From the NCBI RefSeq assembly GCF_053078305.1, contig NZ_CP166879.1: DNA of 64,000 nucleotides. One strand, written 5' to 3'. A program made the position numbers and the translations under genes. Positions 25,935 through 40,273 of this stretch are shown here, piece by piece. The notes below the pieces were generated by a model. That model made no database searches. It saw nothing but the letters and a program-made list of their open reading frames with translations, and was not told where the DNA came from. Each line of letters begins with the position of its first letter. Position 1 is the first letter of the stretch.

Positions 25935-26149
25935 TTTAATCATCCTGGTTAAGCAAATTTGGTGAATTGTTAACGTTAACTTTTATAAAAATAAAGTCCC
26001 TTACTTTCATAAATGCGATGAATATCACAAATGTTAACGTTAACTATGACATTTTGTGATCGAATATGCATGTTTTAGTAAATCCATGACGATTTTGCGA
26101 AAAAGAGGTTTATCACTATGCGTAAGTCAGATGAATTTAAGGGAAAAAA

Positions 26150-27064
26150 ATGTCAGCCAAAGTATGGGTTTTAGGGGATGCGGTAGTAGATCTCTTGCCA
26201 GAATCAGACGGGCGCCTACTGCCTTGTCCTGGCGGCGCGCCAGCTAACGTTGCGGTGGGAATCGCCAGATTAGGCGGAATAAGTGGGTTTATAGGTCGGG
26301 TCGGTGATGATCCTTTTGGTGCGTTAATGCAAAGAACGCTGCTAACTGAGGGAGTCGATATCACGTATCTGAAGCAAGATGAATGGCACCGGACATCCAC
26401 GGTGCTTGTCGATCTGAACGATCAAGGGGAACGTTCATTTACGTTTATGGTCCGCCCCAGTGCCGATCTTTTTTTAGAGACGACAGACTTGCCCTGCTGG
26501 CGACATGGCGAATGGTTACATCTCTGTTCAATTGCGTTGTCTGCCGAGCCTTCGCGTACCAGCGCATTTACTGCGATGACTGCGATCCGGCATGCCGGAG
26601 GTTTTGTCAGCTTCGATCCCAATATTCGTGAAGATCTATGGCAAGACGAGCATTTGCTCCGCTTGTGTTTGCGGCAGGCGCTACAACTGGCGGATGTCGT
26701 CAAGCTCTCGGAAGAAGAATGGCGACTTATCAGTGGAAAAACACAGAACGATCGGAATATATGCGCCCTGGCAAAAGAGTATGAGATCGCCATGCTGTTG
26801 GTGACTAAAGGTGCAGAAGGGGTGGTGGTCTGTTATCGAGGACAAGTTCACCATTTTGCTGGAATGTCTGTGAATTGTGTCGATAGCACGGGGGCGGGAG
26901 ATGCGTTCGTTGCCGGGTTACTCACAGGTCTGTCCTCTACGGGATTATCTACAGATGAGAGAGGAATGCGACGAATTATCGATCTCGCTCAACGTTGCGG
27001 AGCGCTTGCAGTAACGGCGAAAGGGGCAATGACAGCGCTGCCATGTCGACAAGAACTGGAATAG
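26150..27064 (+). CDS. cscK: Fructokinase (PfkB family)
   Basis: 304-aa ORF with ribokinase-like GAGD motif. Confidence 0.85.
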   Translation: MSAKVWVLGDAVVDLLPESDGRLLPCPGGAPANVAVGIARLGGISGFIGRVGDDPFGALMQRTLLTEGVDITYLKQDEWHRTSTVLVDLNDQGERSFTFMVRPSADLFLETTDLPCWRHGEWLHLCSIALSAEPSRTSAFTAMTAIRHAGGFVSFDPNIREDLWQDEHLLRLCLRQALQLADVVKLSEEEWRLISGKTQNDRNICALAKEYEIAMLLVTKGAEGVVVCYRGQVHHFAGMSVNCVDSTGAGDAFVAGLLTGLSSTGLSTDERGMRRIIDLAQRCGALAVTAKGAMTALPCRQELE

Positions 27065-27135
27065 TGAGAAGTAAACGGCGAAGTCGCTCTTATCTCTAAA
27101 TAGGACGTGAATTTTTTAACGACAGGCAGGTAATT

Positions 27136-28383
27136 ATGGCACTGAATATCCCATTCAGAAATGCGTACTATCGTTTTGCATCCAGTTACTCATTTCTCTT
27201 TTTTATTTCCTGGTCGCTGTGGTGGTCGTTATACGCTATTTGGCTGAAAGGACATCTAGGGTTGACAGGGACGGAATTAGGTACACTTTATTCGGTCAAC
27301 CAGTTTACCAGCATTCTATTTATGATGTTCTACGGCATCGTTCAGGATAAACTCGGTCTGAAGAAACCGCTCATCTGGTGTATGAGTTTTATCCTGATCT
27401 TGACCGGACCGTTTATGATTTACGTTTATGAACCGTTACTGCAAAGCAATTTTTCTGTAGGTTTAATTCTGGGGGCGCTCTTTTTTGGCCTGGGGTATCT
27501 GGCGGGATGCGGTTTGCTTGACAGCTTCACCGAAAAAATGGCGCGAAATTTTCATTTCGAATATGGAACAGCGCGCGCCTGGGGATCTTTTGGCTATGCT
27601 ATTGGCGCGTTCTTTGCCGGCATATTTTTTAGTATCAGTCCCCATATTAACTTCTGGTTGGTCTCGCTATTTGGCGCTGTATTTATGATGATCAACATGT
27701 GTTTTAAAGATAAGGATCACCAGTGCGTAGCGGCGGATGCGGGAGGGGTAAAAAAAGAGGATTTTATCGCAGTTTTCAAGGATCGAAACTTCTGGGTTTT
27801 CGTCATATTTATTGTTGGGACGTGGTCTTTCTATAACATTTTTGATCAACAACTTTTTCCTGTCTTTTATGCAGGTTTATTCGAATCACACGATGTAGGA
27901 ACGCGCCTGTATGGTTATCTCAACTCATTCCAGGTGGTACTCGAAGCGCTGTGCATGGCGATTATTCCGTTCTTTGTGAATCGGGTAGGGCCAAAAAATG
28001 CATTACTTATCGGTGTTGTGATTATGGCGTTGCGTATCCTTTCCTGCGCGCTGTTCGTTAACCCCTGGATTATTTCATTAGTGAAGCTGTTACATGCCAT
28101 TGAGGTTCCACTTTATGTCATATCCGTCTTCAAATACAGCGTGGCAAACTTTGATAAGCGCCTGTCGTCGACGATCTTTCTGATTGGTTTTCAAATTGCC
28201 AGTTCGCTTGGGATTGTGCTGCTTTCAACGCCGACTGGGATACTCTTTGACCACGCAGGCTACCAGACAGTTTTCTTCGCAATTTCGGGTATTGTCTGCC
28301 TGATGTTGCTATTTGGCATTTTCTTCCTGAGTAAAAAACGCGAGCAAATAGTTATGGAAACGCCTGTACCTTCAGCAATATAG
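27136..28383 (+). CDS. cscB: Sucrose:H+ symporter (MFS, LacY-like)
   Basis: 415-aa 12-TM ORF. Confidence 0.85.
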   Translation: MALNIPFRNAYYRFASSYSFLFFISWSLWWSLYAIWLKGHLGLTGTELGTLYSVNQFTSILFMMFYGIVQDKLGLKKPLIWCMSFILILTGPFMIYVYEPLLQSNFSVGLILGALFFGLGYLAGCGLLDSFTEKMARNFHFEYGTARAWGSFGYAIGAFFAGIFFSISPHINFWLVSLFGAVFMMINMCFKDKDHQCVAADAGGVKKEDFIAVFKDRNFWVFVIFIVGTWSFYNIFDQQLFPVFYAGLFESHDVGTRLYGYLNSFQVVLEALCMAIIPFFVNRVGPKNALLIGVVIMALRILSCALFVNPWIISLVKLLHAIEVPLYVISVFKYSVANFDKRLSSTIFLIGFQIASSLGIVLLSTPTGILFDHAGYQTVFFAISGIVCLMLLFGIFFLSKKREQIVMETPVPSAI

Positions 28384-28825
28384 ACGTAAACTTTTTCCGG
28401 TTGTTGTCGATATCTCCATATCCTTCAACCGGAAAATAATAATACTAAAATGCTTAGCCCTGCTAATAATCGCCTAATCCAAACACCTCATTCATGTTCT
28501 GGTACAGTCGCTCAAATGTACTCCGGATACACGGTTCGCTGATTTCCAGGACATTGTCGTCATTCAGCGACCTGTCGCGTGTATCACGGGCCTGCGAATT
28601 CATCAAGGAATGCATTGCGGAGTGAAGTATCGAGTCACGCCATATTTCGCTATCAGGATTCTGTGTGATGGTTACATCGCCCGGCCCAAGGCTGTTTAGT
28701 CATCAGCGCTTTCTGACAGTGCTGAGATTTCAACCTGTTGCAGTAAAAATGAGTAGATATAGGGCAAGTGTGCTGCCAAACCCATCGTTTACGGGATGAA
28801 GGTAGATTTGGTTTGAAGGGTATCT

Positions 28826-28842
28826 GGTGTCCCCTGCAGACA
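28826..28842 (-). repeat. att-core-like fragment matching the 3' end of tRNA-Arg (argW)
   Basis: ctggtgtcccctgcaga is the reverse complement of the recalled argW 3' end CTGCAGGGGACACCA; no tRNA body follows. Confidence 0.4.
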
Positions 28843-28912
28843 TCTACTTGAAGCGGCAGGGGATTGATTGGAATGGTGTTTTTTAGATGTGAAAAATATT
28901 TTACCCGCTATT

Positions 28913-29113
28913 TTACCCATTGGCGCGGCTTAAGAGCTTATTTTTGAATTCACAATGGTCACGATATAACCATCTTGCTCGCCCGTGGATAACTTTGGCT
29001 TTAGGTAGGTCTCCGGACTTAATCCGGTCATAGATGAAGGTCTTACCGAAGCCAGTATCAGCCATGATGAATTTCAAATCAACCAGTGAATCAGGTTGTA
29101 GTTCGTGTTGCAT
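28913..29113 (-). CDS. Excisionase-like / AlpA-family DNA-binding protein
   Basis: 66-aa ORF with AlpA/Xis-like pattern (DTGFGKTFIYDRIKSGDLP); adjacent to att remnant. Confidence 0.5.
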   Translation of the reverse strand: MQHELQPDSLVDLKFIMADTGFGKTFIYDRIKSGDLPKAKVIHGRARWLYRDHCEFKNKLLSRANG

Positions 29114-29217
29114 GAGTGCTATCTCCGAATAGGGAATCGAACCTGCAAATCAGGCAATAAAAAAACCGCATTGATGCGGCGATGGTAGGTCTGGATATCT
29201 TGATAAATGAAAATGCC

Positions 29218-29496
29218 TCATCGAGTGTGAGGCGGTGTGATTCCATGGTTACCTCTGCTTTTTGAACGCATGTCACGTAACTTCTTAATGTGTTCTGCCG
29301 TTTCGATCTCTTCTGCTATCCGATCTGCATCAGCTTTATTCACAGGTTCAAAGTCATGATTAAAGCGGAACATGCTGGCGATACATGTTCTGCCTTTTCG
29401 GATGTAGTGAACTTTGTTGTGGTTAGAACGCAGGATTTTGCAGGGAGTGCCGTGGTGGTCGACGTACCAGGTGTTAGGCAAAATGATTCTGAACAT
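29218..29496 (-). CDS. Hypothetical phage protein
   Basis: 92-aa ORF in early-left region. Confidence 0.35.
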   Translation of the reverse strand: MFRIILPNTWYVDHHGTPCKILRSNHNKVHYIRKGRTCIASMFRFNHDFEPVNKADADRIAEEIETAEHIKKLRDMRSKSRGNHGITPPHTR

Positions 29497-29543
29497 TTTT
29501 ACACCTCAGTTGGACGATGTTGAAATTTGCTCCTTTGAGGTCA

Positions 29544-29762
29544 TCACAATCCCCATTGTTTGTTCTTAAGTTCGATCTCCTCCTGGCAACTTGCACAAGT
29601 CCGACAACCCTGAACGGCTAGGCGTCTTCGCTTATCTATGGGATCGCCACACTCACAACAATGAGTGGCAGATATAGCCTGGTGGTTCAGGCGGCGCATT
29701 TTTATTGCTGTGTTGCGCTGTAATTCTTCAATTTCTGATGCTGAATCAATGATGTCTGCCAT
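29544..29762 (-). CDS. TraR/DksA-family C4 zinc-finger protein
   Basis: CxxC...CxxC motif (CCECGDPI...CRTCASC) in 72-aa ORF. Confidence 0.55.
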   Translation of the reverse strand: MADIIDSASEIEELQRNTAIKMRRLNHQAISATHCCECGDPIDKRRRLAVQGCRTCASCQEEIELKNKQWGL

Positions 29763-29860
29763 CTTTCATTAATCCCTGAATTGTTGGTTAATACGCTTGA
29801 GGGTGAATGCGAATAATAAAAAAGGAGCCTGTAGCTCCATGAAGATTTTGCTTTTCATGT

Positions 29861-30142
29861 TCACCGTTCCTTAAAGACGCCGTTTAACATACCGATTGCC
29901 AGACTTAAGTGAGTCGGTGTGAATCCCATCAGCGTTACCGTTTCGCGGTGCTTCTTCAGTACGCTACGGCAAATGTCATCGACGTTTTTATCCGGAAACT
30001 GCTGTCTGGCTTTTTTGATTTCAGAATTAGCCTGACGGGCAATACTGCGAAGGGCGTTTTCTTGCTGAGGTGTCATTGAACAAGTCCCATGTCGGCAAGC
30101 ATAAGCACACAGAATATGAAGCCCGCTGCCAGAAAAATGCAT
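29861..30142 (-). CDS. Hypothetical phage protein
   Basis: 93-aa ORF. Confidence 0.3.
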   Translation of the reverse strand: MHFSGSGLHILCAYACRHGTCSMTPQQENALRSIARQANSEIKKARQQFPDKNVDDICRSVLKKHRETVTLMGFTPTHLSLAIGMLNGVFKER

Positions 30143-30152
30143 TCAGTGGTTG

Positions 30153-30344
30153 TCATACCTGGTCTCTCTCATCTGCTTCTGCTTTCGCCACCATCATTTC
30201 CAGCTTTTGTGAAAGGGATGTGGCTAACGTATGAAATTCTTCGTCTGTTTCTGCTGGTATTGGCACAAACCTGACTCCAATTTGAGCAAGGCTATGTGCC
30301 ATCTCAATGCTCGTTCTTAACTCAACAGGAGATGCTTTGTGCAT
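30153..30344 (-). CDS. Hypothetical phage protein
   Basis: 63-aa ORF. Confidence 0.25.
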   Translation of the reverse strand: MHKASPVELRTSIEMAHSLAQIGVRFVPIPAETDEEFHTLATSLSQKLEMMVAKAEADERDQV

Positions 30345-30495
30345 ACAGCCCCTCGTTTATTATTTATCTCCTCAGCCAGCCGCTGGGCTTTCAGTGGATT
30401 TTGGATAACAGAAAGGCCGGGAAATACCCAGCCTCGCTTTGTAACGGAGTAGACGAAAGTGATCGCACCTACCCGGATATTATCGTGAGGATGCT

Positions 30496-31176
30496 TCATC
30501 GCCATTGCTCCCCAAATACAAAACCAATTTCAGCCAGTGCCTCGTCCATTTTTTCGATGAACTCCGGCACCATCTCGTCAAAACTCGCCATGTAATTTTC
30601 ATCCCGCTCAACCACGACATAATGCAGGCCTTCACGCTTCATGCGTGGGTCATAGTTGGCAAAGTACCAGGCATCTTTTCGCGTCACCCACATGCTGTAC
30701 TGCACCTGGGCCATGTAAGCCGACTTTATGGCCTCGAAACCACCGAGCCGGAACTTCATGAAATCCCGGGAGGTAAACGGGCATTTCAGCTCAAGACCAT
30801 TGCCGTCACTGCATAAACCATCGGGAGAGCAGGCGGTGCGCATACTTTCGTCGCGATAGATGATCGGGGATTCAGTAACATTCACGCCGGAAGTGAATTC
30901 AAACAGGGTTCTGGCGTCGTTCTCGTACTGTTTTCCCCAGGCCAGCGCCTTAGCATTAACTTCCGGAGCCACACCGGTGCAAACCTCAGCCAGCAGGGTG
31001 TGGAAGTAGGACATTTTCATGTCAGGCCATTTCTTTCCGGAGCGGGGTTTTGCTATCACGTTGTGAACTTCTGAAGCTGTGATGACGCCGAGCCGTAATT
31101 TGTGCCACGCATCATCCCCCTGCTCGACAGCTCTCACGTCGATCCCGGTACGCTGCAGGATAATGTCTGGTGTCAT
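30496..31176 (-). CDS. exo: Lambda exonuclease (Red alpha)
   Basis: 226-aa protein matching lambda Exo along its length ([26 protein letters not shown]...). Confidence 0.9.
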
Positions 31177-31958
31177 GCTGCCACCTTCTGCTCAGTGGCT
31201 TTTTGTTTCAGGAATCCAAGAGCTTTCACTGCTTCGGCCTGTGTCAGTTCTGACGATGCACGAATGTCGCGGCGAAATATCTGGGAACAGAGCGGCAATA
31301 AGTCGTCATCCCATGTTTTATCCAGGGCGATCAGCAGAGTGTTAATCTCCTGCATGGTTTCATCGTTAACCGGAGTGATGTCGCGTTCCGGCTGGCGTTC
31401 TGCAGTGTATGCGGTATTTTCGACAATGCGCTCGGCTTCATCCTTGTCATAGATACCAGCAAATCCGAAGGCCAGGCGGGCACACTGAATCATGGCTTTA
31501 TGCCGTAACATCCGTTTGGGATGCGACTGCCACGGGCCGGTGATTTCTCTGCCTTCGCGGGTTTTGAATGGTTCGCGTCGGCATTCATCCATCCACTCGG
31601 TAACGCAGATCGGATGATTACGGTCTTTGCGGTAAATCCGGCATGTACAGGATTCATTGTCCTGCTCAAAGTCCATGCCATCAAACTGCTGGTTTTCATT
31701 GATGATGCGGGACCAGCCATCAACGCCCACCACCGGAACGATGCCGTTCTGCTTATCAGGGAAGGCGTAAATTTCTTTCGTCCACGGATTAAGGCCGTAC
31801 TGGTTGGCGACGATCAACAATGCGATGAACTGCGCATCGCTGGCATCGCCTTTAAATGCTGTCTGGCGAAGAGTGGTGATCAGTTCCTGTGGGTCGACAG
31901 AATCCATGCCGACACGTTCAGCCAGCTTCCCTGCCAGCGTTGCGAGTGCTGTACTCAT
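31173..31958 (-). CDS. bet: Lambda Bet single-strand annealing protein (Red beta)
   Basis: 261-aa protein matching lambda Bet ([36 protein letters not shown]...). Confidence 0.9.
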
Positions 31959-31963
31959 CCGTT

Positions 31964-32260
31964 TTATACCTCTGAATCAATATCAACCTGGTGGTGAGCA
32001 ATGGTTTCAACCATGTACCGGATGTGTTCTGCCATGCGCTCCTGAAACTCAACATCGTCATCAAACGCACGGGTAATGGCTTTTTTGCTGGCCCCGTGGC
32101 GTTGCAAATGATCGATGCATAGCGATTCAAACAGGTGCTGGGGCAGGCCTTTTTCCATGTCGTCTGCCAGTTCTGCCTCTTTCTCTTCACGGGCGATCTG
32201 CTGGTAGTGACGCGCCCAGCTCTGAGCCTCAAGACGATCCTGAATGTAATAAGCGTTCAT
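31964..32260 (-). CDS. gam: Gam (RecBCD inhibitor), short form
   Basis: 98-aa protein matching lambda GamS ([21 protein letters not shown]...). Confidence 0.85.
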
Positions 32261-32335
32261 GGCTGAACTCCTGAAAATGGCTGTGAAAAAATCGCCCGCG
32301 GAATGCCAGGCTGATTCGGAAAACAGGAAAGGGGA

Positions 32336-32626
32336 TTAGTGATTCAGACCGTTGCCGCGTCCGTCGAGAAAAACTTCCACGAGCAAGTCACGGGTATAAG
32401 TGCGCTCAATGCCGCGATGCAGATAAAGTCGTCCGCGTAAATTAGCTGATGCAGTCCAGGTACCATCTTTGCGTTTGACCAGCATTCCTGGCATGACCGC
32501 ACCGCGATTAACGGTCTGCGTTCCGTAATGTTGATGAACCATAAAAACTCCTGCCCGTAAGCTGGGCTGCTGAACATATAAAGACTTCTGCGCGTATTCA
32601 GGCGGTGGATGGCCGCCGGTTGTCAT
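32336..32626 (-). CDS. Hypothetical early-left protein (kil/cIII region)
   Basis: 96-aa ORF downstream of putative OL/pL; function not assignable. Confidence 0.3.
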   Translation of the reverse strand: MTTGGHPPPEYAQKSLYVQQPSLRAGVFMVHQHYGTQTVNRGAVMPGMLVKRKDGTWTASANLRGRLYLHRGIERTYTRDLLVEVFLDGRGNGLNH

Positions 32627-32825
32627 AACTAAGCCGCCTCGTTGAAGCGACTAAGGTATGAAATGTTGAGTTGATTTCAGCTGGTCACACCGACGTTCAC
32701 GCGTCCGTTTCATCCCTCGCACTCCCCGAAGCCTGCTGAAATTCAAGCTGCGGATCTAAGCGGTCATCGCAACGGTGAATCAGGTGGTTGCCGTATCGTT
32801 GTGTTGTTGCGATATGGTGATAATA

Positions 32826-32863
32826 GCTATTGCTATTGGTAATATCAATACTTATTGCTATTA
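32826..32863. promoter_or_regulatory. Putative OL operator region
   Basis: Motifs GCTATTGCTAT and ATTGCTATTA, each also present between cI and cro. Confidence 0.4.
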
Positions 32864-32986
32864 GTTGATGTGTTTTGATATTAAATGTTTGATAGCAAAA
32901 AGAATTAATTTTGTGACTTGCATCGCATAGCGATAACTGAAGTGAGGTCGTGGTGGTTTTTTGAACGGTGTGTGATGAGGGGAGGG

Positions 32987-33011
32987 CAAAAGAAAACCCG
33001 GCAAGGCCGGG
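32987..33011 (-). terminator. Rho-independent terminator ending the cI-proximal operon
   Basis: cccggc-aag-gccggg hairpin; on minus strand followed by TTTTCTTTT; about 40 bp past the stop of the 33047 gene. Confidence 0.5.
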
Positions 33012-33046
33012 TTGTTGATAAGGTATGTCACATACAATAATAAATT

Positions 33047-33874
33047 TTAGACTTGAGGAAGTATTTTTTTTGCAAAATCAATAGTTTCTTTGTGGCTGGA
33101 TGCAGGTATATGATTTATTTTCTTAGCATCCATAGTTCTCTTTATGATGTCAATAACTTTGCTTTGGCCTGAGTTTGGTGATTCAGGGGTTTCAATTGTG
33201 AATAGAATGTCATCAAGTGAAAGCAGGTTTTCTTCTGCTGCTCGAGTTATTCTCATCACCCAAGTATCACTATGCTCCATCATTTTTCCGGGTTCAGTTT
33301 GAGTGAATGCCAGAGGTTTGATGGCACATTGGATCCTGTCGTGCTTCTTGGCGACCAATGGCATTGAGAACTTTGCGAAATACCCATCAATAGTTGCTTG
33401 TTTGAAGACGTTCTTCAATCCATCTATTCTATCGATACTGCGTTTTAGCTCTCTAGCTAGGACATCTTCACGGCGCTCTTTTGTGTAGTCAGCGTGGTTT
33501 ACATATTTATTGTAAATGCGAGCCAACTCTTCTTTCGGGTTTTCACTGAGGATAACTCTCGTAGAGCTGAACTGAAAAATTGATTCTTTTTTGTTTGTAA
33601 AATATCTGAAGAATTGTGCAAGTTGTTGATGTCCAACAATCTGGGTAGCATGCATTTTTGCGAACTGGAGTTCTCTTTGTATTGAGTCTTTTGCTACGGG
33701 AAAAATGCAATCATCATGGAAGAAATTCTTTACACGAGAGTCATTTCGCTTTGTGAGATGGAAGTCAAAGTAATTTTCTTTTGGCGCGCACAGAAGTACG
33801 CCTATGTTTGCGAACTCTTCAGTCTCCGCATAAGGCGCATAGCGAACGATGCTATATAGGCATGGAGTTGTCAT
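33047..33874 (-). CDS. Hypothetical protein, possibly DUF3037-like; second gene of rexAB-position operon
   Basis: ORF 33047-33889; likely ATG at 33874 overlapping upstream stop (ATGA); N-terminal YSIVRYAPYAETEEFANIGVLLC reminiscent of DUF3037 (from memory, needs HMM). Confidence 0.5.
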   Translation of the reverse strand: MTTPCLYSIVRYAPYAETEEFANIGVLLCAPKENYFDFHLTKRNDSRVKNFFHDDCIFPVAKDSIQRELQFAKMHATQIVGHQQLAQFFRYFTNKKESIFQFSSTRVILSENPKEELARIYNKYVNHADYTKERREDVLARELKRSIDRIDGLKNVFKQATIDGYFAKFSMPLVAKKHDRIQCAIKPLAFTQTEPGKMMEHSDTWVMRITRAAEENLLSLDDILFTIETPESPNSGQSKVIDIIKRTMDAKKINHIPASSHKETIDFAKKILPQV

Positions 33875-34620
33875 TCTATTGCGCTCCAAAATTCATCACA
33901 ATCACCTTTGCCTAGCGTAGTGCAGACAAAAGGTAAAAACTCATCATCTACTATCCACTCCTCTGGAATTTCGTCAAGGATAGCAGGAAGTTTGTGTAAA
34001 CTGTCAACGACCCTCTGGCGGTACTCTACGCGATCCACTAAATCATACTGCCATTTGCGGTTACCCGGGCCGTACACGTGTACAGAAAAATCTTCAGGCC
34101 CAGCATTCTGATCAAATGATAGATTATGGTCAATCAGATAATACTTATCGTTACTGATGTCATAAAGGATATTGACGTTTCCGCCTTTATCAGTAAGCGT
34201 TCTGTCTGCATTTAATATCCACTTATCAAAAGCATAGATTAATTTTTGCTGTTCGACTGGGATGATCATTTCGTTTCTTGACTGCGTAAACGTTAACGCG
34301 ATTGCACCGTCTATGAACAATGAAGCAAAAGCATACCCTGTACAAATTTGTTGCTGCAGATCAGGTGTGTACTCTACAAGTTCCTCTGGTACAAATACGA
34401 TTTTAAAGTCAGGTAAAGGAAGGCCGATATCATTAGCCAGGCACGCCGAAATGAACTCAGCTAAGAGATTTTTCGGGGGCATTGATGGTTTAGATTTCAA
34501 AACATACAACTGCCCATCATCACATTTGCAAAGAAATGGCTGAGTGGAACCTTCATTGATGCGACGTATTACTTCAACGACATTAGGTATTGCACTACTG
34601 CTGCTTGCTTCGCGCTCCAT
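33871..34620 (-). CDS. Hypothetical kinase-like protein (HipA / PI3-4 kinase-like motifs); first gene of rexAB-position operon
   Basis: ORF 33871-34623; motifs ILNADRTLTDKGGNVNIL and YYLIDHNLSFD resemble catalytic and metal-binding loops of HipA-type kinases; tentative. Confidence 0.5.
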   Translation of the reverse strand: MEREASSSSAIPNVVEVIRRINEGSTQPFLCKCDDGQLYVLKSKPSMPPKNLLAEFISACLANDIGLPLPDFKIVFVPEELVEYTPDLQQQICTGYAFASLFIDGAIALTFTQSRNEMIIPVEQQKLIYAFDKWILNADRTLTDKGGNVNILYDISNDKYYLIDHNLSFDQNAGPEDFSVHVYGPGNRKWQYDLVDRVEYRQRVVDSLHKLPAILDEIPEEWIVDDEFLPFVCTTLGKGDCDEFWSAIE

Positions 34621-34758
34621 CACTAACCCTTACGTGATTCAAGTCTTCCACCTCATTACTCCGCATCTCAAAGAGCGGTTCTACACAGCGTGTTTAAAGA
34701 AAAACAACAGGCTTCATTGCTGTAGCTGTTTTTCCGTAATGTCACTTTTGGTCTCGTT

Positions 34759-35451
34759 TTAACCATGCTTCCTGTACGTCTGAGGCATGCTCCCGATGAC
34801 CTTACCGAAGATGAATACACGGTTCATCTCGTCTTTCTCGATTGGGTCCCATGGTGAATAGCTCTTGTTGTCAGAGATAACCAGCAGCTTATCCTTCATC
34901 ATTTGAAGGCGCTTAACATGGGCCGTATCGTCGTAAAGGAACGCATAAATCCCGTCGCCGTCGAAAGATTTGATGGCGATATCGACGAACAGCAAGTCAC
35001 CCGGTTCGATCGTTCCTGACATGCTGTCACCGCGTACGTTAATGATGCGGATATTTTCTGCCTTCCTGCCATCGAACATGTGACGAGCATCGTCAAACGA
35101 GTACTCAACCGAGCGTAGGACTTCTACAAACTCACGGTTGATGACACCCGGCCCAGCACTGACTTCTATATCAAGAACGTCAATCTTGAAGTATTTGGAA
35201 TGGTTGACAGTAGGCTTCCCTGATTGTTGACCGTCATTTCTCATCGGGCCTATGCCTGATGAGAGCCACTCTGTTCGAACACCCAATGCATTAGCTATTT
35301 CAACAATTTTTGTTGAGCCGCGCGCGTTGCCGCTTGTCAGTCTCCAGATTGTGGGTTGAGCTACGCCAGACGCCTTTGCAAGAGCGCCTTGAGACATTCC
35401 AGATTGTTCCATCGCTAGGTTTAAGCGATCAGCAAGAGTTTCTTTTTTCAT
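34759..35451 (-). CDS. CI-type prophage repressor (HTH plus S24 LexA-like peptidase)
   Basis: ORF 34759-35487; N-terminal HTH, C-terminal S24 domain with GDSM; likely leaderless ATG at 35451. Confidence 0.8.
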   Translation of the reverse strand: MKKETLADRLNLAMEQSGMSQGALAKASGVAQPTIWRLTSGNARGSTKIVEIANALGVRTEWLSSGIGPMRNDGQQSGKPTVNHSKYFKIDVLDIEVSAGPGVINREFVEVLRSVEYSFDDARHMFDGRKAENIRIINVRGDSMSGTIEPGDLLFVDIAIKSFDGDGIYAFLYDDTAHVKRLQMMKDKLLVISDNKSYSPWDPIEKDEMNRVFIFGKVIGSMPQTYRKHG

Positions 35452-35497
35452 AAGTTTTAATTTATACGCTTGCGTATTGATGGTCAAAACACGTTTT

Positions 35498-35529
35498 GCT
35501 ATTGCTATGGTTAATACGCATTGCTATTA
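35498..35529. promoter_or_regulatory. Putative OR operator region between cI and cro
   Basis: GCTATTGCTAT and ATTGCTATTA motifs shared with OL. Confidence 0.4.
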
Positions 35530-35558
35530 TTTATTTGTTGTAATACCAATAGGAATTG

Positions 35559-35789
35559 ATGATGACAAATCAAACCATTCAACTCGCAATCAGTATTACA
35601 GGTAGTCAAAAACGACTGGCAGATCTATGCGGTGTAGCCCAGCCCACTGTTTGGCGTTGGCTACACGGTGGCGGAATTGATGCCCGCTATGTAATGAAAA
35701 TTGTCTCAGCCACTGGTGGAAAGATTAAGCCAGCAGATATTCGTCCCGACCTCGCACCATTGTTTAACGCGAGTAATTCTGCCGCCTAA
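35559..35789 (+). CDS. Cro-like HTH regulator (YdaS-like)
   Basis: Small HTH protein divergent from cI. Confidence 0.6.
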   Translation: MMTNQTIQLAISITGSQKRLADLCGVAQPTVWRWLHGGGIDARYVMKIVSATGGKIKPADIRPDLAPLFNASNSAA

Positions 35790-35813
35790 TCTGCGGCGTT
35801 AACTGATAAGGCA

Positions 35814-36359
35814 ATGATTATGCAACCACTTACATACCAACAGACTAGCGGATTTAGCCCGACTGCGGTGATAAATCGTTCTCAAACAAAACAGGCGCCA
35901 GGCCACGAAAAAATCCGTGATGCCGTCCGCGCCTGGTCGGCTGCAGATAATCAGGATGTTGTTGCCGCACTCATTGTGAATGAGTATCGGGAGCAGGGCG
36001 GCGGCACCATCGATTTCCCTGATGATGTCAGCCGTGCACGCCAGAAGCTGTTCCGCTTCCTCGATAACAAATTCGATTCTGAAAAATACCGAAATAACGT
36101 GCGTGAACTGACCCCGGCAATTCTGGCGGTACTACCGCTGGAATATCGCGGCCACCTGGTTGTGCAGGATAGCTTCATGGCTCGGCTGGCTGAAATGGAA
36201 AAGGAACTCAGTGAGGCAAAACAGGCTGTCATTCTCAACGCACCACGCCACCAGAAACTGAAGGAGATGAGTGAAGGCATTGTGTCGATGTTTCGTGTGG
36301 ACCCGGATCTGGCTGGTCCACTGATGGCGATGGTCACCACCATGCTGGGGGTAATATGA
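35814..36359 (+). CDS. YdaT-like protein (cII position)
   Basis: 181-aa ORF resembling Rac YdaT (EYREQGGG, LTPAILAVLPLEYRGHL). Confidence 0.45.
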   Translation: MIMQPLTYQQTSGFSPTAVINRSQTKQAPGHEKIRDAVRAWSAADNQDVVAALIVNEYREQGGGTIDFPDDVSRARQKLFRFLDNKFDSEKYRNNVRELTPAILAVLPLEYRGHLVVQDSFMARLAEMEKELSEAKQAVILNAPRHQKLKEMSEGIVSMFRVDPDLAGPLMAMVTTMLGVI

Positions 36360-36445
36360 CAGGTTCAGAAATGGCGAAAGCCGGTCTGCGCGAACATAAC
36401 CGACTTTCAGGTGCAAATCGTAACACACTCATTGCGGGAGGAATT

Positions 36446-37375
36446 ATGGCAAACACTGCTGAGATATTCAATTTTCCAGTGCCGGATGTGGCACAAAAGG
36501 AGCCGCGCGTGGCAGATCTCGATGATGGTTATACGCGCATTGCAAATGAGTTGCTGGAAGCTGTAATGCTGGCCGGATTAACACAGCACCAGCTTCTGGT
36601 CTTCCTGGCTGTCATGCGCAAAACATATGGCTTTAATAAAAAACTGGATTGGGTGAGCAACGAGCAACTTTCCGAATTGACCGGGATATTGCCGCACAAG
36701 TGTTCTGCTGCAAAAAGCGTTCTGGTAAAGCGTGGGATTCTTATTCAGAGCGGGCGGAATATCGGCATCAATAATGTGGTCAGTGAATGGTCAACATTAC
36801 CCGAATCAGGTAAGAAAAATAAAGTTTACCTGAAAGAGGTAAATTTACCTGAATTAGGTAAGAAAAGTTTACCCAAATCAGGTAAAGGCACTTACCCGAA
36901 TCAGGTAAACACAAAAGACAAACTAACAAAAGACAATATAAAACCTTTTTCGTCCGAGAATTCTGACGAATCCTCTGACCAGCCAGAAAATGCCCTTCCT
37001 GTGGTGAAACCGGATGCTGCGATTCAGAGCGGCAGCAAGTGGGGGACAGCAGAAGACCTGACCGCCGCAGAGTGGATGTTTGACATGGTGAAGACCATCG
37101 CGCCATCAGCCAGAAAACCGAATTTTGCAGGGTGGGCTAACGATATCCGCCTGATGCGTGAACGTGACGGACGTAACCACCGCGACATGTGCGTGCTGTT
37201 CCGCTGGGCATGCCAGGACAACTTCTGGTCCGGTAACGTGCTAAGTCCGGCCAAACTCCGCGACAAGTGGACCCAACTCGAAATCAACCGTAACAAGCAA
37301 CAGGCAGGCGTGACAGCTAGCAAACCAAAACTCGACCTGACAAACACAGACTGGATTTACGGGGTGGATCTATGA
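36446..37375 (+). CDS. Replication initiator O-like protein
   Basis: ORF 36356-37375; N-terminal domain resembles lambda O (ADLDDGYTRIANELLEA); internal iterons; likely start ATG 36446. Confidence 0.75.
   Translation: MANTAEIFNFPVPDVAQKEPRVADLDDGYTRIANELLEAVMLAGLTQHQLLVFLAVMRKTYGFNKKLDWVSNEQLSELTGILPHKCSAAKSVLVKRGILIQSGRNIGINNVVSEWSTLPESGKKNKVYLKEVNLPELGKKSLPKSGKGTYPNQVNTKDKLTKDNIKPFSSENSDESSDQPENALPVVKPDAAIQSGSKWGTAEDLTAAEWMFDMVKTIAPSARKPNFAGWANDIRLMRERDGRNHRDMCVLFRWACQDNFWSGNVLSPAKLRDKWTQLEINRNKQQAGVTASKPKLDLTNTDWIYGVDL
36797..36912. repeat. Phage replication origin iterons inside the O gene
   Basis: Four to five direct repeats of about 16 bp (tacccgaatcaggtaa and variants). Confidence 0.55.
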
Positions 37376-38073
37376 AAAACATCGCCGCACAGATGATTAA
37401 CTTTGACCGTGAGCAGATGCGTCGGATCGCCAACAACATGCCGGAACAGTACGACGAAAAGCCGCAGGTACAGCAGGTAGCGCAGATCATCAATGGTGTG
37501 TTCAGCCAGTTACTGGCAACTTTCCCGGCGAGCCTGGCTAACCGGGACCAGAACGAACTGAACGAAATCCGCCGCCAGTGGGTTCTGGCTTTCCGGGAAA
37601 ACGGGATCACCACAATGGAACAGGTTAACGCAGGAATGCGCGTAGCCCGTCGGCAGAATCGACCATTCCTGCCATCACCCGGGCAGTTTGTTGCCTGGTG
37701 CCGGGAAGAAGCATCCGTTACTGCCGGGCTGCCAAACGCCAGCGAGCTGGTTGATATGGTTTACGAGTATTGCCGGAAGCGTGGCCTGTATCCGGATGCA
37801 GAGTCTTATCCATGGAAATCAAACGCGCACTACTGGTTGGTTACCAACCTGTATCAGAACATGCGGGCCAATGCGTTGACTGACGCGGAATTACGGCGCA
37901 AGGCTGCCGATGAACTGTCCTGTATGACCGTGCGAATTAACCGTGGTGAGGCTATACCTGAACCAGTAAAACAACTTCCTGTCATGGGCGGTAGACCTCT
38001 AAATCGTGCACAGGCTCTGGCGAAGATCGCAGAAATCAAAGCTAAGTTTGGGCTGAAAGGAGCAAGTGTATGA
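37372..38073 (+). CDS. Replication protein P (helicase loader)
   Basis: 233-aa protein matching lambda P along its length. Confidence 0.9.
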   Translation: MKNIAAQMINFDREQMRRIANNMPEQYDEKPQVQQVAQIINGVFSQLLATFPASLANRDQNELNEIRRQWVLAFRENGITTMEQVNAGMRVARRQNRPFLPSPGQFVAWCREEASVTAGLPNASELVDMVYEYCRKRGLYPDAESYPWKSNAHYWLVTNLYQNMRANALTDAELRRKAADELSCMTVRINRGEAIPEPVKQLPVMGGRPLNRAQALAKIAEIKAKFGLKGASV

Positions 38074-38243
38074 CGGGCAAAGAGGCAATTATTCATTATC
38101 TGGAGACGCACAAGAGCTTCTGTGCGCCGGACGTTGTTGCGACAACAGGTGTGACATTAACCAGCATAAATCAGGCTGCGGCAAAAATGGCGCGGGCAGG
38201 AATCCTGGTCATTGATGGTAAGGTCTGGCGAACGTTTGTTTAA
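38070..38243 (+). CDS. Ren-like protein, C-terminally truncated (57 aa)
   Basis: Hand-translated ORF overlapping P stop: MTGKEAIIHYLETHKSFCAPDV... matches lambda Ren N-terminus, ends where the AT-rich cargo island begins. Confidence 0.45.
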   Translation: MTGKEAIIHYLETHKSFCAPDVVATTGVTLTSINQAAAKMARAGILVIDGKVWRTFV

Positions 38244-38389
38244 CGGTTAGCTACTCAGGATGATAGGGCGGGGCAAGTGAGTATGAAGCGGATTTTCAGG
38301 AATGCCGTCAGAGTTTGGAAATAAAGTGGGTTTTCTAGTGGCAAGAGACTTGATAATATTTAGTTCTTTAAATCCAAGGAGATAGGGTT

Positions 38390-38884
38390 ATGAGAAAATT
38401 TATTTTAGCCTTTGTCATAAGTGCCTCGTTTACAGCAAATGCTGGTGTAGAGAAGTTAGGGCCGTGGATAACAAAGTCTGAGATAAATAAAATGACTGAC
38501 CAGACTGACTTTGTGGCTCTTAATTTATCACCAGATTCATATAACAAAGCAGGTACTGATCGTGCAACTTCACTGGTGTTGCGTTGTAGTGATAACAAAA
38601 CAGATGCCTATTTATCATTCAATGATTATATGGGTTCGGACAACCCAAGAATTACAGTGCGGTTAGATGGCGGAAAGCCGGTCAAGAGTGTTTGGGGAGG
38701 TGGGGAAGGCGGTGATTCTGCATTTGCTCCACAACCAATACAATTTATAAAGACCTTGGCTAAGCATAAAAAAGCTATTTTTGGGTTTGAACCTTATGGA
38801 TCAACTATGCAAGTAGTTGAGTTTGACTTGTCTGAGATTGATAAGGTTGTGGAAAAAATTTCACAGTCTTGCAATTGGAAATGA
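38390..38884 (+). CDS. Secreted/periplasmic protein of unknown function (nin-region cargo)
   Basis: 164-aa ORF with N-terminal signal peptide, good RBS aaggag, low GC. Confidence 0.5.
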   Translation: MRKFILAFVISASFTANAGVEKLGPWITKSEINKMTDQTDFVALNLSPDSYNKAGTDRATSLVLRCSDNKTDAYLSFNDYMGSDNPRITVRLDGGKPVKSVWGGGEGGDSAFAPQPIQFIKTLAKHKKAIFGFEPYGSTMQVVEFDLSEIDKVVEKISQSCNWK

Positions 38885-38902
38885 CAAAAAAATTTCATAT
38901 GA

Positions 38903-38926
38903 ACCCAGTTGGCGCTGGGTTTTTTA
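38903..38926 (+). terminator. Rho-independent terminator
   Basis: cccag...ctggg hairpin followed by TTTTTT. Confidence 0.5.
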
Positions 38927-39255
38927 TTTCAGTAGCCAATAATGCATTCAAAATCTCTTACTTGAGAAACGGCCTATTTGAGATTTCAGTCGTGGCAGGA
39001 TGATCAGTTGATTCGAGTATTGACGCATTTGCGTCATAATAGATTGCAGTAATTTCATTGCACTACGTGAACTGGTCATGACTCGTCACCGATTTTGTAG
39101 GATGCTTAGAAGGAAAACTATTGAATGCCACTGCAGCAGCACAACAGCTGGAGGTAAAATGAAGAACAAATTGACGGGAATTAGCATAGATACAAATCAA
39201 AGCTCTTAGAGGGCTTTTATTCTATGATAAATGGACTTTGTTTGAGAGTGATATT

Positions 39256-39582
39256 ATGAAACCGAAGAAACTAAGAGCTGAGCAGCAGTACCATTTAGAC
39301 CTTGAATTAGTAAAGAAGAAGCCAGCGAACCGCACCGAGGCAAAAGCCCATTTGGCGGCACAATTACGGATTAGCAAGTACAAGACGCAGGCCTCTTCCA
39401 AAATTCGCGTTGGTAGTTTCAAGGGAAGAAAGAAGGTGCATTTTAGCCAGGCGGAAGAAGATGCTAGGAAGGCAATGGCTAAAGCTAATGCAGTTAGGTT
39501 TTCAGAAGGTGAGGTTGAATCCGTTGATACAGAAAGAATATCAGAAAGTAACAAACGCTGGCGCGGGAGAACCGCTGACTAA
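39256..39582 (+). CDS. Small lysine-rich basic protein of unknown function
   Basis: ORF 39238-39582 (TTG); likely ATG 39256 (MKPKKLRAEQQ...). Confidence 0.4.
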   Translation: MKPKKLRAEQQYHLDLELVKKKPANRTEAKAHLAAQLRISKYKTQASSKIRVGSFKGRKKVHFSQAEEDARKAMAKANAVRFSEGEVESVDTERISESNKRWRGRTAD

Positions 39583-39686
39583 TGTCTGATTTAGATATTG
39601 CAGCAAAGCTGTATGAAGAAAACACATTCATGGGCAGATGTGACATTACAGGGAGTTTTAGTTTTCAATTGCTGAAGACATCGAAT

Positions 39687-39710
39687 CATATTCATATTCA
39701 TATTCATATT
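39687..39710. repeat. Hexanucleotide tandem repeat (CATATT)x4
   Basis: Four perfect tandem copies 17 bp upstream of the ATG at 39728. Confidence 0.9.
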
Positions 39711-39727
39711 GTTTTGAGGGGTAATTT

Positions 39728-40273
39728 ATGGATGCAGGGATAGCCTCAGTTGTCGCCGCAATTATTGCCGCAGCTGCAGCTGGAGTGGGGCTTGTTATCA
39801 CTAAGGAGAATAAAACATCTGAGTTTCGGCAAGCGTGGATAGATGGTTTAAGGGAAGAGTTAGCCGAATTGATGGAGAACTTTTTACAATTACGCACGAC
39901 TCCGCCTGAGAAGCTCCCTGAGGTGGCTGGAAAAATTTATTTTCTTTCCGCAAAAGTGAAGCTTAGGTTATCCAGTAAAAACTTAACTAATGAAGAGTCT
40001 CAGCTTTTGAAAATCATTGAGGATTACATTTTAAAAATGGATCGCTCATCTAACATTACAGATGTGGTCAGACAGTATTTTGAATATAGTTCCAGTGTTC
40101 TTAAAACTGAGTGGGAGAGAGTGAAGCGAGGCGAGAAAAAATACAGAGTCGCTATCACGGTTTCGTACTCAATATTGGTTTTTTTGGGGCTCTATTTTGC
40201 TTCACGTTTCATTCCAGCGATAAGTGAAAAAATCTTAGAAATTATAGAGTTTTTAAATTATTCGTTGTTCTGA
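39728..40273 (+). CDS. Membrane protein of unknown function (TM helices at both termini)
   Basis: 181-aa ORF with RBS gagggg; hydrophobic N- and C-terminal segments flanking a charged central region. Confidence 0.5.
   Translation: MDAGIASVVAAIIAAAAAGVGLVITKENKTSEFRQAWIDGLREELAELMENFLQLRTTPPEKLPEVAGKIYFLSAKVKLRLSSKNLTNEESQLLKIIEDYILKMDRSSNITDVVRQYFEYSSSVLKTEWERVKRGEKKYRVAITVSYSILVFLGLYFASRFIPAISEKILEIIEFLNYSLF

Follow-up and report, generated by a model that had tools for sequence, protein, structure and literature searches.

The 64,000-nucleotide stretch of contig NZ_CP166879.1 (RefSeq assembly GCF_053078305.1) analysed here, which will be referred to as the window, includes the immunity region of a prophage, and in it, directly downstream of a CI-type repressor gene, lie two co-oriented genes, hipA and hipD (Table 1). 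The extent that an earlier note on this DNA had given for the pair (33047-34620, with the stop and start codons overlapping in ATGA) proved exact, the strand (minus) having been left unstated there, and the overlap itself implies that both genes may be translationally coupled. An alternative start for hipA exists at a GTG codon at 34623, one codon upstream of the ATG, and the ATG is preferred because an AAGGG Shine-Dalgarno sequence sits 6 nt before it. The orthologues of the repressor are annotated in RefSeq and GenBank as XRE/S24 repressors or as cI, and the last base of the -10 element in the PRM-like promoter is 8 nt upstream of the cI ATG, which corresponds to a near-leaderless, lambda-like arrangement. 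At the other end of the region, the ATTGCTATT-type repeats that surround the PL-like promoter recur at OR (35487-35534).

Table 1. Coordinates in the window of the hipAD pair and of the features that accompany it.
Feature	Coordinates	Strand	Description
PRM-like promoter	35459..35487	minus	TTGACC-17-TAAATT; 9/12 in a consensus scan; consensus match only
cI-type repressor gene	35451..34759	minus	230 aa, HTH + S24 peptidase; from ORF and translation; heads the presumed PRM operon
cI-hipA spacer	34621..34758	minus	138 nt; contains the hipA Shine-Dalgarno sequence AAGGG
hipA (gene 1)	34620..33871	minus	249 aa + stop, ATG start; HipA_2-family Ser/Thr kinase, toxin/effector
hipA/hipD stop/start overlap (ATGA)	33871..33874	minus	read from the sequence; tcat on the plus strand
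hipD (gene 2)	33874..33047	minus	275 aa + stop; partner/antitoxin, N-terminal DUF3037 and C-terminal alpha/beta domain
Intrinsic-terminator-like hairpin	33013..32995	minus	AACCCGGCCTTGCCGGGTT, then T-rich tail TTCTTTTG; 34 nt past the hipD stop; from a scan
OL/PL region	32820..32883	minus	PL-like promoter within ATTGCTATT-type operator repeats
PL-like promoter	32848..32820	minus	TTGATA-17-TATTAT; 10/12 consensus matches

In phage lambda, this is the place of rexA and rexB, whose products are made in the lysogen and exclude other phages. The comparison with the lambda annotation bears out the proposal that the pair occupies the rexA/rexB position: the lambda order (cI, 112 nt, rexA, rexB, OL) is that of the window, in which the two genes are likewise encoded on the cI strand, past the cI stop codon and before a terminator and OL. 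The likeness is one of layout, however, since the sequences are unrelated, as had also been anticipated (best BLASTP E value 0.8, in a three-sequence comparison of HipA and HipD with RexA and RexB), and the biochemistry differs as well, RexB being a membrane protein and the pair described here a kinase-based system.

The product of the first gene matches the Pfam family HipA_2 (PF20613) along its whole length (positions 1-239 of the 240 in the model; E 2.6e-76), this being its sole Pfam match. Its AlphaFold2 model is confident (pLDDT 88.8, pTM 0.87) and, when compared with the PDB using Foldseek, retrieves as top hits PI4KII alpha (E 1.6e-6), CtkA from H. pylori (4.5e-6) and actin-fragmin kinase, in addition to kinases of the mTOR/ATR type, HipA from S. 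oneidensis (6e-4) and from E. coli, and HipT from Legionella (1.3e-3). A kinase fold is therefore supported, in agreement with the resemblance to HipA and PI3/PI4-type kinases that had been suspected from short motifs; the link comes from the fold comparison only, PDB sequence searches (with the single sequence and with a profile) having detected no relative of either HipA or HipD. The residues expected of such a kinase are in place: the catalytic D139 lies within an NADR motif and is accompanied by N148/N150 and by D164-H165-N166. In an alignment of 28 HipA_2 homologues, reaching down to 35% identity, K42, D139, R140, N148, N150, D164, H165 and N166 are among the invariant positions, and the window copy keeps D139 together with every other residue that is invariant in the family.

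As for the second product, the suspicion that it belongs to the DUF3037 proteins was correct for its N-terminal part, with residues 7-125 matching DUF3037 (PF11236, E 2e-23), while Pfam gives nothing for the C-terminal 150 residues; no HTH match was obtained for the protein in the domain profile searches, and no solved structure related to the DUF3037 domain turned up. The AlphaFold2 model of HipD has high confidence at the level of single residues (pLDDT 90.9) and consists of two domains of uncertain mutual orientation (pTM 0.55), and the C-terminal alpha/beta domain of this predicted model weakly resembles the restriction-endonuclease fold, with which a published HHpred assignment to DUF1829 agrees, itself weak (probability 0.78; PMC13092281). 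An alignment of 39 DUF3037 homologues, down to 24% identity, has among its invariant positions P14, E17, T18, E20, F21, N23, G25, R47 and E136, as well as P172, I185, K186, P187, F190, Q192 and W205. Across these 39 homologues the acidic residues of a PD-(D/E)xK motif are absent (P172-L/F173 and A184-I185-K186 stand in their place, keeping the Pro and the Lys), and an active PD-(D/E)xK nuclease was therefore rejected. Because the canonical acidic residues are missing throughout the family, the domain may be read as a degenerate nuclease fold, which could possibly serve as a binding module. Both genes are taken as real, and not as chance open reading frames, because of the strength of the Pfam matches given above and of those to PHROGs 3162 and 5137 (E 5e-80 and 3e-125), families that are labelled as of unknown function; NCBIfam has no specific model for HipA or HipD.

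Is this pair, then, a new system? The earlier note had not recognised it as a named one, and in this respect it has to be corrected, since the system is already known: it was predicted as PDC-M66 in PADLOC (2023) and has been validated and named as DS-6 and HipAD (2025-2026). PADLOC assigns the two genes to PDC-M66A and PDC-M66B, the components of a two-gene phage defence candidate system (E 4.7e-15 for HipA; E 9.4e-16 for HipD, over residues 7-271), and at E values up to 1 the only other match was a marginal one to HEC-01A (E 0.017). By megablast, the cassette is 94% identical in nucleotide sequence to that of coliphage PhiR5_1 (PV340545.1), which carries the pair between cI and kil, annotated as HipA toxin and HipD antitoxin, and the proteins share 239/249 (96%) and 271/275 (98.5%) residues, respectively. 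The PhiR5_1 proteins are, in turn, identical in sequence to DS-6A (WP_000389051.1) and DS-6B (WP_000210934.1) as listed in Table S8 of the DefensePredictor paper (PMC13092281). DS-6 stems from an E. coli ECOR prophage, and according to that paper Brenes and Laub found it independently (Cell Host Microbe 2025), the system being renamed HipAD. In every sequence-level feature of HipAD, DS-6 and PDC-M66 that was examined, the window pair agrees with them: a HipA_2 kinase gene comes first, a DUF3037 gene overlaps it in ATGA, the slot is beside cI, the proteins are nearly identical and D139 is present. It differs from them in 10 + 4 amino-acid substitutions, and the prophage that carries it differs from that of HipAD/DS-6 in its immunity type (N-terminal half of cI, OR and cro) and in its insertion site. 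A preprint, 10.1101/2024.01.29.577857, mentions neither HipA nor M66.

The reading of the pair as a defence module, advanced from the sequence, is backed by experiments published for a pair whose proteins share 96% and 98.5% identity with those of the window (PMC13092281). In them, DS-6 cut the plating of Bas1 by about 10^4 to 10^5 (-log EOP of 3.9 and 5.2 for the wild type, Table S7), and the D139A mutant of the kinase catalytic residue lost protection (0.88), so that the point mutant of the DR motif that had been proposed for the window pair was already made for a near-identical allele, abolishing defence. These measurements were obtained with the commoner allele, borne on a plasmid (pCV1 vector, Table S11). 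In the same work, AlphaFold 3 predicts an interaction between DS-6 A and B (ipTM 0.76-0.79) and a weaker one between B and DNA, the DUF3037 protein scored high with the DefensePredictor classifier (log-odds 6.4), and abortive infection and a toxin-antitoxin logic are put forward solely as the authors' hypotheses (PMC13092281). A second line of evidence comes from Retron-Sda1, which contains the same combination of domains, working as a stand-alone defence: the kinase is required and the retron parts are not, deletion of HipA removes defence, deletion of the DUF3037 gene is toxic, and the PDC-M66 call is noted (PMC12548924). The pair in which this toxicity was seen is only distantly homologous, and it sits within a type III retron operon instead of a prophage immunity region (PMC12548924).

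Despite its name, the pair is not canonical HipBA. It shares with HipBA of E. coli K-12 and with HipBST a HipA-like kinase fold with the catalytic Asp and the Mg-binding Asn and Asp, and also the principle of a kinase toxin neutralised by a partner protein. However, HipA of HipBA has about 440 aa, with HipA_N/Couple_hipA and HipA_C, whereas the kinase of the window has 249 aa and lacks the N-terminal subdomains, and a PDB search found no detectable sequence similarity between it and the solved HipA or HipT chains. The antitoxin HipB is an Xre-type HTH protein encoded upstream, whereas here the partner is a DUF3037 protein encoded downstream, the order being reversed, with the toxin first, and the place upstream is taken by the phage cI. 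Another relative in function is Stk of the Shiga-toxin phage 933W, a protein kinase of the prophage immunity region that excludes HK97. Like the present system, Stk provides a prophage-encoded kinase, expressed from the immunity region, against a particular superinfecting phage; the two differ in that Stk is of the eukaryotic type and acts as a single gene, whereas HipA of the window belongs to HipA_2 and is paired with a DUF3037 protein.

The cassette has a G+C content of 40.8%, as opposed to 48% in cI and the flanks, a low value that is typical of acquired cargo. Its limits can be approximated by comparison with related phages that carry other cargo: on the repressor side, similarity resumes at window position 34760 (query base 1861), directly past the cI stop codon, and therefore the cI-hipA spacer travels with the cassette; on the opposite side, the terminator hairpin, conserved in all related phages, is invariant in an alignment of seven of them and similarity drops at once towards the cargo, so the hairpin marks the distal edge of the slot. 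Within the spacer, the consensus scan found neither a promoter-like nor a terminator-like site, and its predicted fold is no better than that of shuffled sequences (z -0.89). From this lack of consensus signals, which as evidence from a scan is weak, we infer that in the lysogen the transcript starting at PRM would run through cI into hipAD. One promoter-like match, at 33901..33873, would start transcription inside hipD; it was rejected because such matches are about as frequent in the region as chance predicts (8 against 6.7). In the PL leader (32627-32815), a put-like antitermination RNA was considered because no N gene is visible, and it received no support (fold no better than that of shuffles, z -0.44; nothing there in Rfam).

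Regarding its distribution, of 5426 complete E. coli genomes 283 contain the cassette, where it is annotated by RefSeq, and each of them has a single, chromosomal copy. Nucleotide identity is about 96% in 282 of them and at least 99% in one, which makes the window allele a rare one; two inspected genomes among the 282 encode the DS-6 protein accessions, in the order kil-hipD-hipA-repressor-cro. The one genome with the window allele, at 99.9% identity, is that of strain F467, in which the prophage is located at the argU/DLP12 site, unlike the prophage of the window, which adjoins the csc sucrose locus. Outside E. coli, homologous pairs whose identity goes down to 24-48% retain the gene order and the ATGA junction in Gammaproteobacteria and Alphaproteobacteria (Proteus, Pseudomonas, Idiomarina and Sphingomonas). 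In the prophages of Proteus mirabilis the pair occupies the equivalent slot, flanked by the genes for an S24 repressor and an N peptide, and the pairs from Pseudomonas, Idiomarina and Sphingomonas are found in non-prophage contexts.

Taken together, these data point, with a probability that we put at roughly 0.85, to the pair being a copy of the HipAD (DS-6, PDC-M66) anti-phage toxin-antitoxin system, which a lambdoid prophage carries in its equivalent of the rexAB slot, as cargo expressed in the lysogen. According to the mechanism that we propose, the PRM transcript would carry cI and hipAD in the lysogen, and coupled translation would keep HipD matched to HipA, so that the kinase would be held neutralised. 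Infection by a sensitive phage would then relieve the inhibition of HipA by HipD, and the freed HipA would phosphorylate a host factor that is essential, so that either the infected cell or the development of the phage would be arrested (abortive infection). By analogy with HipA, which targets GltX, and with HipT, that factor might be an aminoacyl-tRNA synthetase or another component of translation. The need for the kinase in defence has been published for DS-6 (PMC13092281) and for the Retron-Sda1 pair (PMC12548924), and so has the toxicity on loss of the partner (PMC12548924).

The alternative that keeps most weight, unlikely as we consider it, is that HipA excludes phages directly, without killing the cell, by phosphorylating one of their proteins or a host factor on which they depend, with HipD as a sensor or regulator instead of a classical antitoxin. 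Such a system would resemble Stk of 933W, and HipD is large for a simple antitoxin, with 275 aa and two domains, of which the nuclease-like one is conserved and has invariant residues (K186, Q192 and W205) that fit a sensing role; moreover, abortive infection has only been proposed (PMC13092281). Nevertheless, the toxicity of the DUF3037 deletion in the homologous system indicates that an unrestrained kinase harms the host (PMC12548924), and the HipA-family kinases whose targets are known hit host translation factors (PMC13092281). A sensing role of HipD is also conceivable within the toxin-antitoxin reading that we prefer: the degenerate nuclease-like domain could recognise a phage nucleic acid or protein, after which the DUF3037 domain would release the kinase. 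This is a tentative and rather doubtful suggestion, but, if true, it would turn HipAD into a kinase switch gated by a nuclease fold, with no described parallel among Hip systems.

Considerably less probable is that the pair serves mainly for addiction or persistence, stabilising the prophage or inducing dormancy, and that the anti-phage effect is a side product of overexpression from a plasmid. The pair is built like a type II toxin-antitoxin system, canonical HipBA is known for persistence, and defence was indeed measured from a plasmid clone (PMC13092281). However, the protection conferred by the pCV1 clone of DS-6 amounted to 4-5 logs and was kinase-dependent, the high score of the DUF3037 protein came from a classifier trained on defence (PMC13092281), and in related phages the slot holds other cargo of a defence or toxin-antitoxin-like kind, an example being the GevT/GevA pair of PhiR47_2, which corresponds to PADLOC PDC-M11 (E 2e-133 and 7e-52).

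Finally, the allele of the window could be a decayed, non-functional copy, given its rarity among the E. coli genomes and its differences from the tested allele (10 in HipA, at positions 3, 4, 8, 82, 85, 118, 130, 206, 225 and 237; 4 in HipD, at positions 39, 128, 193 and 260), but this is the least credible of the readings, since both frames are intact and full length, the Shine-Dalgarno sequence and the ATGA junction are preserved, and none of the 10 + 4 substitutions falls at an invariant or nearly invariant column of the alignments of 28 HipA_2 and 39 DUF3037 homologues. Overall, the window pair is a real and probably functional toxin-antitoxin defence module, presumably expressed in the lysogen.

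The survey of the cI-proximal slot in related phages, which had been suggested as a follow-up, reveals a site of variable cargo: apart from HipAD in PhiR5_1 and GevTA in PhiR47_2, there are two uncharacterised genes each in PhiR68_2 and Perceval, three genes in PhiR70_1 and a lipoprotein gene in PhiR26_1. The uncharacterised cargo of these sister phages is a better place to seek something new.

The hipAD cassette of this prophage, the HipA_2 kinase gene with its DUF3037 partner, is linked to an immunity specificity other than that of PhiR5_1, the coliphage that carries the same cassette beside its repressor gene. Similarity to PhiR5_1 ends within cI, and the N-terminal half of this gene, together with OR and cro, is of the Perceval / PhiR68_2 / 4A7 type and not of that of PhiR5_1, so that the repressor gene itself contains a mosaic junction. 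The prophage, bordered by the sucrose-utilisation csc locus (cscB, cscK), is a mosaic without a representative among the complete genomes of the collection, since the share of window 26000-40000 that any single one of them covers is at most 79%. Among these genomes, the only 99.9% identical copy of hipAD is that of strain F467, whose prophage occupies the argU/DLP12 site.

The cargo slot, which runs from the cI stop codon to the conserved terminator hairpin, differs in content among the related coliphages (L003, L004, L006, L007): PhiR68_2 and Perceval encode proteins of about 340 aa and 149-168 aa (the smaller one annotated as transmembrane in Perceval), three genes are present in PhiR70_1, and PhiR26_1 encodes a lipoprotein. 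PADLOC gives no significant match for any of this cargo, which is therefore regarded as a set of defence candidates.

Regarding leftward antitermination, no N-like ORF is found from the PL-like promoter to the kil-like gene, and the leader of roughly 190 nt that follows this promoter matches no Rfam family and shows no better folding than its shuffled versions. Elsewhere in the window, two small RNAs, both exceeding their Rfam gathering thresholds, are adjacent on the plus strand.

Features and intervals in window coordinates
Feature	Position	Strand	Rfam score (bits)
Border of prophage and csc locus	26000-28400		
kil-like gene	32626..32336		
PL-like promoter to kil-like gene	32627-32848		
Cargo slot	32995-34759		
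cI	34759-35451		
End of PhiR5_1 similarity	about 35211		
Small RNA pair	53558-53743	+	
isrK	53558-53634	+	66
C4 antisense RNA	53656-53743	+	77.6

In two Proteus mirabilis prophages (L013 and L014, 5500-6700), a second variable gene lies directly past the HipA_2/DUF3037 pair and an N-peptide gene. In L013 it encodes a ClpP-like protease, in L014 a protein with a RelA_SpoT domain, and its position may be another cargo hotspot. In Idiomarina (L009 and L010, 4911-8257), the pair adjoins a 608-aa AAA_22 / KAP-like NTPase and also a 488-aa protein with no Pfam match, surroundings that could represent a defence-island neighbourhood.
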